Shown here piece by piece: positions 11,957 to 59,043 of a stretch of DNA of 64,000 nt. Position numbers and translations under genes: made by a program. The DNA comes from Patescibacteria group bacterium (GTDB lineage: Bacteria > Patescibacteriota > Minisyncoccia > UBA6257 > JACRHW01), in contig JAGWJP010000002.1 of NCBI GenBank assembly GCA_028865725.1, forward strand, positions 104,050 through 168,049, read 5' to 3'. Below the pieces are notes generated by a model. The model saw nothing but the letters and a program-made list of their open reading frames with translations, had not been told where the DNA came from and made no database searches. Numbering within the stretch: the stretch's first letter is position 1; every line of letters starts with the position of its first letter.

Positions 11957-12180
11957 AATACTTGTTATTCACAACCTCGTGTTAATCCTAAAGTAGATAT
12001 CACTATTCTAATGCCTTCTCACCAATGAATCAAATTATCCCTTACGTGACGATCGTCAGATAAGGGATTATTGTATCGCAAATGGCTTAGAATGGCTTAT
12101 GCGGGGACTCAATGATAAGTGTGGCTGGTATTTTGAAACAAAAAAAGCCTTGGAATGTTTTCTTGAGGCATGGGGTAGAA

Positions 12181-12208
12181 AAAGAAAAACCCCGAGATTC
12201 GCTCGGGG
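12181..12208 (-). terminator. Rho-independent terminator downstream of GC-rich gene
   Basis: Minus-strand hairpin CCCCGAGCGAATCTCGGGG followed by TTTTTCTTT. Confidence 0.6.
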
Positions 12209-12347
12209 TACCTGCCACACATGTGACAGGATTTTGTCTGCCCGCCGCGGCCACCCGCGGCAGGACTTTTAAGTGAGTCCCAGCCGATCACTCGGCGCGG
12301 GACTTGCGGGGGCGAGGCCCCCGCCATCTGCTGGCTGGCCCGAAGGC

Positions 12348-13124
12348 CTACCAGCGGTTGCCGTGCTTGCCGTTGGTCTGGCGACCGCGCGAGCCACGGT
12401 CGCCGCCGTTGCGCTGGTAGCCGCCGCGGCCGGACGACTCGTCGTCGTCCTTTCCACGGACGTCGTCCCAGCGGCGGCCGCCGGCGCGGGAGTCCGTGTG
12501 CGGAGCCGGCTGATGCCGCTCCCGGTACGCCTGCTCCTCGCGGCGCAGGCCACCAAGCTCCTCGGCGCGCATCTGGGCCTGGTAGCCCGACTGCGCGTGG
12601 AGAGGCTTGCGGCCGTTGCCGAGACGCCGGATGTTGTCGAGGCAGCGGCCGGTGTGACCGACCTCCACCTGCACCGAGCGATCCTTCTGGAAGCGCGGAA
12701 CCGCCTGACCGCGGTACACGATTCCTTCCGGATTGCGGTCGGGGTCGATGTACTGGTCCTTCGTCAGGATCGCGCCGTTCTCCTGCTTCAGGATGACGAC
12801 ACGCACGGGCGCGTCGACCACTTTGTTGCAGAAGGAGCACTTGGTTCCGTCCAGGATGGAGTCGTCCGGACCGATGAGGGTCTTGACGTCCTCCAGCCCG
12901 AGGGTGGTGCCGTTGGCGAACTGCCTGACGGATTCCTGGGTGAAGTAGTTCTGGCCGCCGTGAGCGTCGAAGTACTGCTTCGCCTCTTCCGTCATGAGCG
13001 GGAGCGCGGACGCGCCCCGCTTGGCCTGGTTGCGCTCGAGAGCGCTTCCGGACTTCTGCGAGGGGGGGACGACGGTCAGGGTGGCGGTGGTGTTCTTGGA
13101 CATGGTTAGTGTCCTCCTTTTCAT
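12348..13124 (-). CDS. Hypothetical protein encoded on a high-GC (about 68 percent) foreign segment; CxxC...HxxxC motif and RGG-rich tail
   Basis: 258 aa; strong RBS AAAGGAGGA 8 nt upstream of ATG; GC3-biased codons (GCC, CTG, CGC, ACC) unlike the flanking genes; balanced amino-acid composition versus nonsense Ala/Arg/Pro-rich alternative frames; C-terminal RGGYQRNGGDRGSRGR low-complexity tail. Confidence 0.55.
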   Translation of the reverse strand: MKRRTLTMSKNTTATLTVVPPSQKSGSALERNQAKRGASALPLMTEEAKQYFDAHGGQNYFTQESVRQFANGTTLGLEDVKTLIGPDDSILDGTKCSFCNKVVDAPVRVVILKQENGAILTKDQYIDPDRNPEGIVYRGQAVPRFQKDRSVQVEVGHTGRCLDNIRRLGNGRKPLHAQSGYQAQMRAEELGGLRREEQAYRERHQPAPHTDSRAGGRRWDDVRGKDDDESSGRGGYQRNGGDRGSRGRQTNGKHGNRW

Positions 13125-13324
13125 TTTCGGATACTCTTCGTTCGTCAGTCAAAAGACTTCAGTCAGAAAGAGCCCGTTCGAAGTATAATCGTTATGCTTG
13201 CGCATCGTTCATATACCTCGAACGCGCCCTTCCTGATTTAGGGTCTTCAACATTTGGGTCGAAGAGTATGTCAGGTTTTTCAATGTTCTTAAGCCCATTA
13301 TACACCATCTTGAATTATTTGTCA

Positions 13325-13340
13325 ACCCCTCACCTTTTAG
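13325..13340. repeat. Left arm of 16-bp perfect inverted repeat flanking the GIY-YIG gene (ACCCCTCACCTTTTAG)
   Basis: Exact reverse complement found at 13615..13630. Confidence 0.8.
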
Positions 13341-13598
13341 GCATCGTTTAAACTATTGGCTATCCTTCTTTTTAACTGTCCATACGCTCTTCCAAATCCC
13401 TTAAGGCGTCTCTCACACAATTTAGCATCATCTTCCGAACGATATGCTTCCACGTAGACATATATCCAGGGCTGATAACGCGCAGTTGATGGCGATTGGC
13501 CACTGTTGTGCTCTAATAGTCTTCTTTTTAAATCGTTCGTTTTTCCGATATATAACGATTTGTTCGCCTTGCTCTTTAATACATACACGTAATGCATA
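13337..13598 (-). CDS. GIY-YIG nuclease domain protein (YhbQ/UPF0213-like)
   Basis: ATG at 13598 gives an 87 aa product starting MHYVYVLKS..LYIGKTNDLKRRLLEHN (GIY-YIG core with conserved R and E/N). The ORF track's longer version starts at a TTG. Confidence 0.75.
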
Positions 13599-13614
13599 CC
13601 TGCATTATTATGTC

Positions 13615-13630
13615 TAAAAGGTGAGGGGTC
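13615..13630. repeat. Right arm of 16-bp perfect inverted repeat (CTAAAAGGTGAGGGGT)
   Basis: Reverse complement of 13325..13340; lies 17 nt upstream of the GIY-YIG ATG. Confidence 0.8.
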
Positions 13631-13805
13631 AAGTTTTTCAGGATCGGCCCTCAAATAAAGAGATAACGTCAAGATTGTTCAGGATTTCTGTCGTCGCTCG
13701 TTCATTCACAAAAGCGGTCTCCCCTCATCTATTGTTCACCTCTTTATTTCAGGGCCGATACCCGTAACACCGGTGTACAAGGCCCTCATTCAAGTTTCTA
13801 GGTGT

Positions 13806-13833
13806 ATTATAGCAGATCCACAGAATTTGTCAA
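13806..13833 (-). promoter_or_regulatory. Consensus sigma-70 promoter (TTGACA-16nt-TATAAT) reading toward the GIY-YIG gene
   Basis: Minus strand reads TTGACAAATTCTGTGGATCTGCTATAAT; perfect -35 and -10 hexamers with 16-nt spacer. Confidence 0.55.
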
Positions 13834-13896
13834 GAACCCCCCATTGCGCTCCCCTCCTTTGTACATTATAGAGAACTTGATACAGGCACAGGGGAT

Positions 13897-13921
13897 AACA
13901 CAAAAGACCCCTTTTGGGGTC
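13897..13921 (-). terminator. Rho-independent terminator of NUDIX gene
   Basis: GACCCCTTTTGGGGTC hairpin followed by T-tract on minus strand (TTTTG), also T-rich on plus side. Confidence 0.65.
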
Positions 13922-13935
13922 CTATTTTAATAGTA

Positions 13936-14724
13936 TTAACGTCCGAAACAATCTCGAAGCGCCGTCGATACTCCCTCAAAATCACGGCCAAGGAGCGAAA
14001 GAATATACCCCAAACGTTTCCCATGACCCCGATACATCCACCGAGGTTTCCCCGAAACAAGATCAGCACCCTTCACATGATTTACAATCTCGTGTGGAGA
14101 AAATTCGCTGACCATTTCAATCTCCACCTCGTCCTTTTTTCCTGACATGCTCGCTACATCGCAGAGAACCGTGACTACAAGATTCACCCGTCCGGTTTCA
14201 TCGCTTGATTTTGCATCAATACGAAAATAGTTCCACAAGGGATCAACTTCAAGGCCCGCTTCCTCGCCTGTTTCACGATGCAGGACGCGCCTAATCACAT
14301 CGATTAACCCGTCAACTTCAATCTCATCAAGAAGTTCCTGCAACATTTCTGCCTTAACGCTTTTTGAAATTTCACGTTCTTTTGTGCCATCACCCTTAAT
14401 GTCGATAATGTCGACTCCCCCTCCGGGAAGCCCCCATGCCTCCGGTTTTACTACCGGCTCGCCATCGACCAAAAACGTGTCTTCCTTTTCGAACACCAGG
14501 CATATCCGTACTTCTTCGGGATTCATCCGACCACGCTCTAACTGGGCGGAAAATCCCTTGCCGTCTTTCATCCTTACCGGAACGCAAAAGACGGAAAGAT
14601 GTCCCACCGATCCTTCATACGCTTCAAGCGTACGCCGAAGCGCGGCGAGCAAACGCTCTTTCTCTCCTACAGTTTCCATTGCGCGCTTTTGGCGCGCGAT
14701 AAGCCATCCCTTCATTTTCAACAC
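13936..14724 (-). CDS. NUDIX-family hydrolase with insertion inside the Nudix box
   Basis: 262 aa; GLPGGGV ... RRVLHRETGEEAGLEV matches the G-x5-E ... REUxEExGU Nudix signature but with an approximately 45-aa insertion between the two halves. Confidence 0.55.
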   Translation of the reverse strand: MLKMKGWLIARQKRAMETVGEKERLLAALRRTLEAYEGSVGHLSVFCVPVRMKDGKGFSAQLERGRMNPEEVRICLVFEKEDTFLVDGEPVVKPEAWGLPGGGVDIIDIKGDGTKEREISKSVKAEMLQELLDEIEVDGLIDVIRRVLHRETGEEAGLEVDPLWNYFRIDAKSSDETGRVNLVVTVLCDVASMSGKKDEVEIEMVSEFSPHEIVNHVKGADLVSGKPRWMYRGHGKRLGYILSLLGRDFEGVSTALRDCFGR

Positions 14725-58635: not shown

Positions 58636-59043
58636 GTGGATTCCGGACCGCACATGGTAGCGATACCGACTACTTCTCGAGCGGTCAAAAATGACAACGG
58701 AAGCATCTTCACCAATTACTATCTTGGCACAAACGAAAGAAGCGACCTCTTGGTGAAGACGCTTCATGCACTCGATATGTTTTGTAGAGAACACAACATT
58801 GTTCATTACCTCATTGATCCTGGTAAACCAGCTCAGAATGGCACCGTAGAACGAAGTCACCGAGAAGATCAGGAGAAATTTTATGAACAACATACGTTCA
58901 AGACAATCACCGATTTGCGACGTAAACTAAAACAGTGGAATATATATTACAATGATCTTGAGCACTGTGGGTTGAAAGGAAAAACACCGAATGAATTTCT
59001 TCTTGATTATCAATTAACTAATCCGCCAGATGTCCGTACCTAA
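58636..59043 (+). pseudogene. Truncated DDE transposase (rve integrase-core C-terminal fragment, IS3/IS481-like)
   Basis: KNDNGSIFTN (second catalytic D region) and PGKPAQNGTVERSHRE (catalytic E region) present; HTH and first D missing; no terminal inverted repeats of an intact IS found. Confidence 0.65.

Follow-up and report, generated by a model that had tools for sequence, protein, structure and literature searches.

A small GIY-YIG nuclease gene bracketed by a perfect inverted repeat raises the question of whether it is a housekeeping gene with a local palindrome or, as an initial annotation of this DNA proposed, a miniature mobile or homing cassette. The gene lies in the window, which is the whole stretch of 64,000 nucleotides (64 kb) that was analysed, and the features described around it are on the minus strand. 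The repeat consists of ACCCCTCACCTTTTAG at 13325-13340 and the exact reverse complement at 13614-13629; the perfect 16-bp repeat had been described correctly, with its second arm misplaced at 13615-13630. Allowing one mismatch, the arms grow to 20 nt (13325-13344 and 13610-13629, with a spacing of 265 nt). On the gene strand, the upstream (5') arm at 13610-13629 reads ACCCCTCACCTTTTAGACAT and the downstream (3') arm at 13325-13344 reads ATGCCTAAAAGGTGAGGGGT. None of 100 shuffled windows reached as many arm matches. From repeat to repeat, the whole cassette measures 305 bp (13325-13629), and it carries the terminal inverted repeats typical of IS/MITE-type elements. Further arm copies or paralogues of the cassette were not found within the 64-kb window. 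Rfam gave just two tRNAs in the whole window and no known RNA family or intron at the locus, and a search of 13100-14100 with E-values up to 10 returned no intron model, just nonsense microRNA-type matches.

The gene between the repeats (13337-13597) comprises 86 codons and a TAA stop, in agreement with the 87-codon GIY-YIG gene annotated there. Its stop codon (13339-13337) falls within the 3' arm, as had been noted, and the ATG is separated by 16 nt, rather than 17 nt, from the end of the 16-nt arm and by 12 nt from the end of the 20-nt arm. No Shine-Dalgarno sequence is present upstream of the gene. The PF01541 profile scores the protein at 62.6 bits (curated cut-off 22.6; E 4.5e-17), and the domain covers residues 1-67 of 86. 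Across 28 homologues, the residues Y3, Y5, Y16, G18, R26, H30, and E62 do not vary, and the catalytic core is intact. The AlphaFold model of the 86-aa protein has a mean pLDDT of 93.1, and its top PDB matches are all GIY-YIG domains. Sequence matches were obtained to 1ZG2 (E 1.8e-13), 1YWL (E 8e-10), and SLX1 (E 4e-4), and Foldseek gave TM-scores of 0.64-0.70 to UPF0213 BH0048 and SLX1 compared to ~0.5 to I-TevI and UvrC. Judged from sequence and model, the protein is a single-domain member of the Slx1/UPF0213 (YhbQ-like) branch of the GIY-YIG superfamily. It would be expected to cut DNA, and a role of this activity in mobility appears plausible. The homing-type nuclease suggested initially did not hold in the classical sense, since the sequence and structure comparisons pointed to the SLX1/UPF0213 type and not to the I-TevI type with a DNA-binding domain. 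An I-TevI-type enzyme was rejected because the 86-aa protein lacks such a domain, the grpIintron_endo profile scored 21.7 bits against a cut-off of 56, and there is no group I intron. A phage or defence origin was also rejected; the hits were limited to weak matches to two Listeria phage records and, in PADLOC and PHROGs, to weak similarity that did not extend beyond the GIY-YIG motif. The neighbouring genes had no matches in these phage and defence collections.

The bracket is a property of the gene family. The comparison set consisted of 80 homologous genome loci from other species (given below by L numbers) whose proteins are 50-62% identical, with a related-loci profile built from 10 sequences. 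Bracketing repeats of 12-26 nt were found at 62 of the 80 loci, plus L043 and L057, while shuffle controls had a mean of ~7 nt and a maximum of 13. The search of related genomes returned the same bracket in 64 of 80 homologous loci, with a length of 275-320 bp from repeat to repeat. The tips of the arms are conserved as (A/G)CCCC-N-CAC ... GTG-N-GGGG(T/C), and the inner arms vary yet stay complementary. Over 59 loci and 16 pairs, 96.2% of the cells were paired versus 59.9% in shuffles, two-sided changes numbered 321 versus 110, and the covariation score was 0.85 versus 0.18, a value of 0.85 being reached by none of 500 shuffles. When the register of the arms was slid, 42-54% of the positions were paired. 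A chance palindrome, for which a second, unrelated 16-bp long-range inverted repeat in the window might speak, is refuted by the shuffled windows and by a bracket that is conserved and covarying in about 80% of the homologous loci.

The same unit occurs in contexts that have little in common. Elements lie inside full-length 16S rRNA (L089 and L059) and inside 23S rRNA (L032 and L065). In RNase P RNA, the arms of L050 align as the P12 stem, and the elements of L002, L030, and L048 occupy the P3 position. These elements of the relatives are insertions because the Rfam matches run full-length across the insert. At 12 loci, a tRNA has its first nucleotide 3-7 nt inside the 3' arm, and its initial 7-13 nt occur a second time on the left side of the element. 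The 5' ends of tRNA-Ala, tRNA-Ile, and tRNA-Val recur as sites in different lineages of the relatives. In 26% of the loci, the element is flanked by direct repeats of 7 nt or longer, versus 2.3% in cross-locus controls; their lengths range from 4 to 13 nt, and they are absent at about half of the loci. The window copy is intergenic and outside any rRNA gene. It is flanked by TTGA(C), like the copies of L014, L097, L100, and L113 and at least eight distinct ORF-less relatives, in which the left flank was not imposed by the search.

Multiple copies and derivatives are also found in the relatives. L018 and L092 each have a second copy, and L052 has identical copies in tandem. Paralogues within one genome differ by 15-18% overall and by 17-20% in the ORF, and their arms are identical; the L092 paralogue shows 30 synonymous and 7 non-synonymous codon differences. 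Hairpins of 29-170 nt that keep the cassette arms but lack the ORF were found at 13 loci and in 15 of 33 metagenome matches.

The segment 13325-13629 is therefore probably one full-length representative of a selfish family of miniature insertion elements that is common in Patescibacteria (CPR) and whose spread would be driven by the nuclease. The proposal of a mini mobile or homing cassette, and not a housekeeping gene, is borne out by the recurrence of the unit of inverted repeat and ORF in unrelated contexts including conserved RNA genes, the covarying arms, the flanking duplications, the multiple copies, and the ORF-less derivatives, together with the intact core and SLX1-like fold of the protein. 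The element can be described as a minimal SLX1/UPF0213-type GIY-YIG gene with inverted repeats of 16-20 bp, conserved at their tips, lying close against its start and stop codons. In the putative mechanism, the SLX1-like, structure-specific nuclease would cut at the paired arms and/or the target, and host repair would then copy the cassette into the break. The outcome may be a homing-like spread between equivalent sites, with occasional jumps to new sites that leave short duplications. The geometry of the cut remains conjectural in this scheme. Where the element is transcribed within a tRNA precursor, rRNA, or RNase P RNA, the paired arms would fold the insert out as an extra helix, and the host gene would therefore survive.

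At the window locus, the copy would have landed on the -35 box of the promoter of a high-GC gene, with the TTGA(C) duplication on both sides. The upstream TTGAC copy (13628-13632), a candidate target-site duplication, would combine with AATAAT inside the element to give a junction promoter, TTGACC-17-AATAAT, at 13604-13632 (10/12 match), of which the 5' arm forms the spacer. The same geometry is seen in L014, L113, and L097, and in all four cases the -10 ends 6-7 nt before the ATG. From its predicted position, transcription would start at the A of the ATG and yield a leaderless nuclease mRNA, and the nuclease gene probably uses this promoter. The downstream TTGAC copy (13321-13325), recognised by sequence and promoter scan, begins the -35 of the resident promoter, TTGACA-17-TATAAT, at 13297-13325 (12/12 match), which would be kept whole because TTGAC is duplicated. 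Equivalents of the resident promoter follow the 3' arm in L014 and L113, and its spacers in the window and L014 are alike at ~10/17 positions, a weak basis for regarding this promoter as carried by the element. Both TTGAC copies of the window thus double as -35 boxes, and the two promoter-like sites that touch the arms (13632-13604 and 13325-13297) were not listed in the initial annotation.

The initial annotation instead assigned the unit its own consensus promoter with a leader of roughly 200 nt. A TTGACA-16-TATAAT promoter is indeed present at 13806-13833 (12/12 match), has a TG upstream of the -10, and would produce a leader of ~202 nt. However, it is specific to the window, lies outside the conserved unit, and is absent from the closest relatives L014 and L113, in which an upstream terminator is directly followed by TTGAC and the arm. 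By comparison of these sequences, the junction promoter, with the duplicated TTGAC as its -35, is the conserved one. The GC-clamped leader hairpin AGGGCC...GGCCCT also exists, at ~13751-13786 and not at 13760-13800. Strong structure of the 5' UTR was confirmed (z-score -4.3), but in the minimum-energy fold this hairpin is displaced by a longer one (13635-13787), which is built on a 20-nt inverted repeat at 13643-13662 and 13740-13759. The leader matched no fetched locus and no Rfam family, and a structured leader as part of the cassette is not upheld. Further upstream, an intrinsic-terminator-like hairpin at 13904-13923 (terminator scan) ends a NUDIX-like gene. A near-perfect long hairpin occupies 13131-13269 in the 5' leader of the downstream gene (z-score -7.25). 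The two long leader hairpins were considered as kin of the element or of each other, and no similarity was found.

The downstream gene is a 251-aa ORF (12348-13103) with a GC3 of 0.90, which the resident promoter would serve. GC content is 62% over 12001-13000 versus ~46% in the rest of the window, and the described adjacency of the unit to a high-GC segment is correct. In contrast, the view of that segment as a one-off foreign block does not stand, as a homologue of the 251-aa protein is located at the same position after the element and its promoter in L113 (tblastn E 2e-8), and L014 has the same layout. The order of element, promoter, hairpin leader, and high-GC gene recurs in L113, with a frameshifted ORF, and in L014, and an ORF-less version of the element is present at the equivalent site in L134. 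Since the window, L014, L113, and L134 share site and layout, they are not independent insertions, and their comparison does not separate vertical inheritance from homing at this promoter site. The element at the window promoter looks old or fixed, and the hairpin may by now have a function for the host. The genome of the window shows no sign of recent activity, with one copy in 64 kb and a nearest protein relative that is 64% identical. L095, the sole syntenic relative found, has no GIY-YIG gene; its NUDIX protein is 48% identical, and it diverges completely after the NUDIX gene. An empty site at the nucleotide level was not found for the window locus, L095 being too diverged for the comparison, and an exact 23-mer search of JGI metagenomes for the predicted empty site (...AAAAACTTGACAAATAATTC...) gave no match.

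Among the other explanations, it is improbable that the arms act in RNA alone, where they would close the mRNA, sequester the start region, or provide an RNase III site and so control a potentially toxic nuclease with no role in DNA mobility. Analogues are the end-to-end pairing of hok-type mRNAs and the processing stems around rRNAs. This explanation draws on the arms overlapping the start and stop codons in many relatives, the lack of a Shine-Dalgarno sequence, and the copies in rRNA, RNase P RNA, and tRNA precursors, which must be transcribed with both arms. The transcript from the promoter at 13833 likewise holds both arms, and they are paired in its minimum-energy fold (z-score -4.6). On the other hand, transcription from the junction promoter of the window, L014, L097, and L113 would start downstream of the 5' arm. 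The same arms are kept by the ORF-less hairpins and are unbroken around the frameshifted ORF of L113, and the flanking direct repeats and scattered genomic contexts are left unexplained. G.U pairs account for just ~2% of the cells, with A.C-type mismatches occurring as often as G.U-type ones; the mismatch spectrum as a whole (13 G.U-type, 14 A.C-type, and 11 other) does not separate a DNA-level from an RNA-level role. A function of the arms in RNA is also compatible with the mobile element as an additional role.

It is equally improbable that an unlinked conventional transposase mobilises the cassette as a non-autonomous MITE, in which the GIY-YIG gene would be a passenger or a retention (homing) module. 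Terminal inverted repeats with short target duplications are the hallmark of DDE transposition, identical arms in diverged paralogues are expected for a trans-acting recognition factor, and ORF-less copies outnumber ORF-bearing ones by 15 to 2 among the exact-arm metagenome matches. An rve-type integrase fragment is present in the window at 58636-59043. MITEs such as the Neisseria Correia elements resemble the cassettes in that they are short, end in inverted repeats, and show small duplications, hairpin transcripts, proximity to or creation of promoters, and many ORF-less copies. MITEs carry no coding sequence and rely on a DDE transposase, whereas the full-length cassette encodes a GIY-YIG nuclease alone and a matching transposase was not seen. 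No DDE, HUH, serine, or tyrosine transposase is encoded by the element, whose single ORF is the GIY-YIG gene, and no transposase gene is adjacent in the loci with listed gene tables. Moreover, the arms are tied across phyla to one small gene family and fused to its start and stop codons, the duplication length of 4 to 13 nt is not fixed, and a non-exhaustive search linked no known IS family to the element ends.

Still less probable is a domesticated host gene, i.e., a DNA-damage nuclease of the YhbQ kind accompanied by a local palindrome with a regulatory function, whose arms would serve as operator-like sites beside two promoters or as an insulating hairpin ahead of the promoter of the downstream gene. 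In its favour, both arms directly adjoin a -35 hexamer, and L014, L113, and L134 preserve the arrangement in which the element is followed by the promoter and the high-GC gene. Hairpins with the cassette arms also occur directly upstream of TTGACA promoters at many loci. This promoter logic fails where the same unit lies within rRNA or RNase P RNA or at tRNA 5' ends. A canonical housekeeping YhbQ orthologue was rejected, given that the syntenic relative L095 lacks the gene and that E. coli yhbQ, a fixed chromosomal gene, is distant (37% identity over 38 aa) and, unlike the cassette gene, has no bracketing repeats.

The selfish insertion element with its own nuclease shares traits with several known systems. 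SLX1, UPF0213, and YhbQ are closest to the cassette protein in sequence and fold (1ZG2, 1YWL, and SLX1), with a single GIY-YIG domain in the cassette. SLX1 cuts branched and hairpin-like DNA, which suits cassette ends that are able to pair, and it requires SLX4 and a RING domain. We know of no mobility described in the SLX1/UPF0213 branch apart from one GIY-YIG insertion into an HsdR gene. The Slx1 cluster of GIY-YIG nucleases including prokaryotic UPF0213/YhbQ, and the recent insertion of a GIY-YIG domain into an HsdR gene, were noted by Dunin-Horkawicz et al. 2006 (PMC1564403). T4 Seg proteins and I-TevI are similar as selfish nuclease genes that recur at the same position of conserved genes across lineages, as the cassette does at the tRNA-Ala 5' end. 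In contrast to them, the cassette protein has no C-terminal DNA-binding domain and no intron, and its fold is nearer SLX1. The T4 Seg and I-TevI elements are not characterised by inverted repeats, target duplications, or derivatives of the MITE kind. In REP/RAYT systems, a small gene likewise lies between inverted palindromic repeats, and the genome contains further copies of the repeat that have no ORF. RAYTs are relatives of HUH/Y1 transposases, whereas the cassette has no HUH/Y1 domain and the window contains no dispersed copies of the arm motif. The intervening sequences of 23S rRNA (23S_rRNA_IVP proteins) are also inserts in an rRNA helix with an extended stem-loop and a possible small ORF, but the cassette encodes another protein family and is also found in tRNA, RNase P RNA, and promoter sites. 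As an intergenic copy, the window cassette is not an rRNA intervening sequence, in contrast to its relatives in L032, L065, L059, and L089.

The nearest precedent is the work of Tsurumaki et al. 2024 (PMC11270868) on CPR rRNA genes, whose non-intron insertions can carry GIY-YIG ORFs. The protein superfamily and host group in that paper are the same as here, and some of the present relatives lie in 16S and 23S rRNA. Its main text does not contain the term 'inverted repeat', and its passages on these ORFs are silent on duplications at the flanks, on derivatives that lack the ORF, and on sites in RNase P RNA, in promoters, or at the 5' ends of tRNAs. A description of the bracketed GIY-YIG architecture was not found in the largely openly accessible literature searched.

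A more tentative proposal is that the cassettes constitute an unclassified class of prokaryotic transposable element, which is possible but on balance doubtful. In such a class, a minimal SLX1-like nuclease and hairpin-forming ends would suffice, short duplications would arise, the end would rebuild the interrupted part (tRNA start, rRNA or RNase P helix, or -35 box), and ORF-less MITE-like offspring would be left. To our knowledge, no GIY-YIG enzyme carries out transposition and no class of prokaryotic transposon relies on a GIY-YIG nuclease. If the proposal is true, it could represent a new mobility strategy. Seamless insertion would account for part of the puzzling CPR rRNA insertions and would add tRNA genes, RNase P RNA, and promoters to the range of sites. 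The essential genes of tiny genomes could host an element that folds out and rebuilds the interrupted end. The prokaryotic UPF0213/Slx1-like family is large, with ~25,000 cluster representatives (50% identity) at E ≤ 0.001, and most of its members have no assigned role, and the cassettes may offer a clue to their function. A structure-guided nuclease of very small size, and an insertion module that is both compact and self-contained, may also be of practical interest. For genome annotation, cassettes and hairpin remnants can break RNA-gene models, and the RNase P RNA scores below the Rfam threshold in three loci that carry the cassette.

The interval 13325-13629 of the window (305 bp, minus strand) probably belongs, as a full-length copy, to a family of miniature selfish elements with a GIY-YIG gene between inverted-repeat arms. 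A perfect 16-nt arm, ACCCCTCACCTTTTAG, lies at 13325-13340 and its exact reverse complement at 13614-13629; the repeat described in the initial annotation therefore exists, with its partner arm placed one base off. The arms reach 20 nt with one mismatch (13325-13344 and 13610-13629), and no shuffle of the window gave equally many matches of the ACCCCTCACCTTTTAG type. The ORF between them (13597..13337, minus strand, 86 codons) matches Pfam GIY-YIG with E 4.5e-17. Its stop codon is inside one arm, its ATG is 12-16 nt past the end of the other, and no Shine-Dalgarno sequence precedes this ATG. On the gene strand the junctions read ...AAAAAC-TTGA-CCCCTCACC...GGTGAGGGG-TTGA-CAAATAA..., so a 4-5-bp direct repeat, TTGA(C), lies on either side of the inverted repeat. 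Both copies are -35 boxes, one of a promoter-like site TTGACC-17-AATAAT at 13632-13604 and the other of a perfect TTGACA-17-TATAAT at 13325-13297, each touching an arm.

Bracketing is characteristic of the gene family. With the window protein as query, a word-indexed search found 28 homologues, the closest non-self one being 64% identical, and the contigs encoding four of them all carry the same kind of bracket, whose arms differ and remain complementary (5' CCCCCGCACCTTTC and 3' GAAAGGTGCGGGGG in P0004, ACCCCCACCTTTTA and TAAAAGGTGGGGGT in P0008, ACCCCTCACCTTTCGAGCAT and ATGCTCAAAAGGTGAGGGGT in P0003). Scanning one genome per species yielded 80 loci, most of them in CPR lineages, whose proteins share 49-62% identity with that of the window; a bracketing repeat of 12-26 nt is present in 62 of the 80, plus L043 and L057, compared with a mean of ~7 nt and never more than 13 nt in shuffled controls. 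In these bracketed relatives the 5' arm either overlaps the ATG or stops 0-30 nt short of it, the 3' arm overlaps the stop codon or comes after it, and the IR-to-IR unit spans 275-320 nt. The 16 outermost arm pairs were aligned for 59 loci; the arms were picked by complementarity, and the figures thus describe loci having arms. Here 96.2% of cells are paired against 59.9% after shuffling, two-sided changes number 321 against 110, and the covariation score is 0.85, which none of 500 shuffles reached, against 0.18. Pairing falls to 42-54% when the register is slid by 1-3 columns. The outermost three C:G pairs are invariant, and inner positions vary freely yet keep Watson-Crick pairing. Among representatives of 50%-identity clusters, the family profile hits 24,866 at E ≤ 0.001 and 5,091 at E ≤ 1e-10. 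Members fused into proteins of 230-600 aa with an N-terminal GIY-YIG domain also exist (e.g. L088 3001-4188).

Relatives sit inside otherwise complete stable-RNA genes, as identified with Rfam and ARAGORN. The full 16S rRNA model (1-1533) is spread over 1784 nt in L089, L059 likewise has its cassette in 16S rRNA, and those of L032 and L065 are in 23S rRNA. For RNase P RNA, 641 nt of L050 cover the 367-position model, with the arms aligned to the P12 stem, and in L002, L030 and L048 the RNA picks up at GAGGAAAGUCC directly past the 3' arm, the P3 position; the matches of these three fall under the Rfam threshold, presumably because of the insert. Twelve loci have a tRNA gene, usually for Ala, Ile or Val, that starts 3-7 nt inside the 3' arm and whose first 7-13 nt are repeated left of the element. 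In L086 the left copy is GGGT and the present tRNA has GGGC, which is consistent with the element tip supplying the first bases of the tRNA. TTGA(C) occurs on both sides in the window, L014, L097, L100, L113, L036 and L064, and the copy on the right is, in most of them, the start of a promoter-like site. Among 66 loci, direct repeats of at least 7 nt flank 26% (2.3% when left and right flanks from different loci were paired) and those of at least 6 nt flank 35% (6.7% in the same control), and about half of the loci have no convincing flanking repeat. Many of the repeats fit a ~5-bp duplication plus a chance or selected match to the G-rich element tip.

Some surroundings are more complex. Nested arrangements at tRNA genes occur in L051 (about 412-460), L078 (2939-2976 and 3288-3325) and L038 (2938-2975 and 3285-3323), with 38-40-nt element-arm hairpins on both sides of the GIY-YIG ORF and partial tRNA duplications; L051 has a tRNA-like 5' half followed by a further CCCCGCACC motif. 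A group I intron (726-972) interrupts the CPR 16S rRNA gene of L047 (119-2375), with part of a group II intron domain further downstream (2286-2375); a GIY-YIG cassette is present in the same locus. Two different cassettes, in L006-L011 and L097/L098, adjoin AbiEii/DUF6922 and ParE-like toxin-antitoxin genes, the surroundings resembling variable genomic islets.

Multiple copies and derivatives were also found. L018 and L092 each hold two full cassettes with 82-85% overall identity and identical 19-25-nt arms, and the L092 copies differ at 30 synonymous versus 7 non-synonymous codons, which indicates purifying selection on the protein. L052 has an identical tandem pair ahead of a tRNA-Ala gene. 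Thirteen of the fetched loci contain 29-170-nt hairpins that have the same arms and no ORF, and in L097 a full cassette and a 67-nt ORF-less one stand in tandem with TTGA around each. An exact search of JGI metagenomes for AAAAGGTGAGGGGTTGACA, which joins the window-type right end to the -35 box, returned 33 loci, among them two full cassettes and 15 ORF-less elements of 30-132 nt with an exact partner arm. At least eight distinct ORF-less elements also have TTGA on the left, a side not imposed by the query, and most matches have a -10-like hexamer 16-17 nt further on.

Every residue of the GIY-YIG core is invariant across the aligned homologues, and the predicted structure is confident (mean pLDDT 93.1). 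Its closest solved structures, in sequence as in fold, are two UPF0213 proteins, BH0048 and EF2693, together with the SLX1 nuclease domain (TM-scores to SLX1 0.64-0.70, rmsd 2-3.5 Å), with I-TevI and UvrC behind at about 0.5. The protein has no DNA-binding extension and is thus placed in the Slx1 cluster (Dunin-Horkawicz et al., PMC1564403) and not among classical homing endonucleases. It is not a canonical YhbQ in syntenic position. E. coli yhbQ, the housekeeping member of the cluster, lacks a bracketing repeat, unlike the window gene, and shares just 37% identity over 38 residues. The upstream order SecD-SecF-sigma-DUF8128-TrwB-EF-P-NUDIX is common to one genome only, L095, whose NUDIX protein is 48% identical; L095 lacks the GIY-YIG gene and has nothing in common with the window downstream of the NUDIX gene. 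A nucleotide-level empty site was not found for the window locus, and JGI metagenomes contain no match to the predicted empty-site sequence.

The mobile cassette proposed initially gains support from the family-wide bracket, varied sites, flanking repeats, multiple copies and ORF-less derivatives. In the favoured mechanism, which is tentative as a whole, the SLX1-like nuclease would recognise the paired ends and/or nick the target, host repair would copy the cassette in, insertion would leave short duplications, and the element tip would rebuild whatever was interrupted, be it a tRNA end, an RNA helix or a -35 box. A role of the arms in RNA as well is probable: they would let the insert fold away from host RNAs and might also give rise to a leaderless mRNA. 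That they function in RNA only is unlikely; G.U pairs make up ~2% of arm cells and the mismatches comprise 13 G.U-type, 14 A.C-type and 11 other, so pairing could matter in DNA, RNA or both, and an RNA-only role leaves the flanking repeats and the scattered genomic contexts unexplained. A MITE mobilised by an unlinked transposase is similarly improbable: the abundant ORF-less copies fit it, but the arms are tied to this one small gene family and fused to its start and stop codons. A domesticated regulatory hairpin, suggested by the promoter boxes at the junctions, is less probable still, the family also occupying rRNA, tRNA and RNase P RNA genes. A chance palindrome is the sole rival excluded, by the shuffles and the covarying arms. 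An earlier paper reported GIY-YIG ORFs within insertions, other than introns, in CPR rRNA genes and judged that they do not spread by homing (PMC11270868). A search of the accessible literature found no description of this family's covarying terminal repeats, of the flanking duplications, of the tRNA, RNase P RNA and promoter sites, or of ORF-less derivatives; most subscription journals lie outside it, so an earlier description of the architecture in print is possible.

The cassettes closest to that of the window, in L014, L097 and L113, share its geometry of TTGACC, a 17-nt spacer formed by the 5' arm, a -10-like hexamer, 6-7 nt and the ATG, and the predicted transcript would start at or beside the start codon. 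Further upstream, the TTGACA-16-TATAAT promoter at 13833-13806 (minus strand) was borne out as a pattern (12/12 match). RNA predicted from it folds as a long hairpin at 13635-13787 (z-score -4.3), and the small leader hairpin proposed earlier is not favoured. This promoter and its ~200-nt leader had been counted as cassette parts; a terminator lies immediately upstream of the TTGACC junction in L014 and L113, which makes them local additions outside the unit, and the leader has no match among the fetched loci. The stretch 13635-13833 (minus strand) comprises the perfect promoter with an extended TG and then a ~150-nt hairpin (inverted repeat 13643-13662/13740-13759). It has no terminator, Rfam match or counterpart in related loci, and may be a novel small RNA or a remnant; its TGAGGGG motifs could pair with the element's 5' arm.

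Past the 3' arm, L113 and L014 have TTGACA-16-TATAAT and then a GC-rich ORF with a strong ribosome-binding site, behind a leader of 190-230 nt that contains a long hairpin. The high-GC 251-aa ORF of the window (12348-13103, minus strand) has GC3 0.90 versus 0.41-0.47 in neighbouring genes. The segment had been called foreign; that it is a one-off block is not supported, given the ORF's homologue behind element and promoter in L113 (13159-13938, GC3 0.67; tblastn 28% over 185 aa, E 2e-8) and the ORF in the same position in L014 (1659-2000, GC3 0.85). Pfam, PADLOC and PHROG give no match to the 251-aa protein, which was also its own sole hit in the word-indexed protein search. L134 shares the upstream gene family of L113 and L014 and has, at the equivalent place, a 131-nt ORF-less element with arms almost those of the window; in L113 the GIY-YIG ORF is frameshifted and the arms are perfect. 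The conserved layout in L113, L014 and L134 means that insertion at this promoter is old or repeatedly renewed, and these loci and the window should not be counted as independent insertions. The leader of the high-GC gene (13131-13269, minus strand) forms a near-perfect long hairpin (z-score -7.25); those in the leaders of L014 (about 1520-1580) and L113 (about 12960-13075) have no sequence similarity to it. Just past the high-GC ORF region, a 26-nt palindrome (88% complementary) centred on TGACGATCGTCA lies at 12033-12072. The window contains a second perfect 16-bp inverted repeat (58006-58021/58731-58746), its arms 709 nt apart and overlapping ORFs; the ORF at 58636-59043 resembles an rve/DDE integrase core fragment, so this locus may be an IS remnant.
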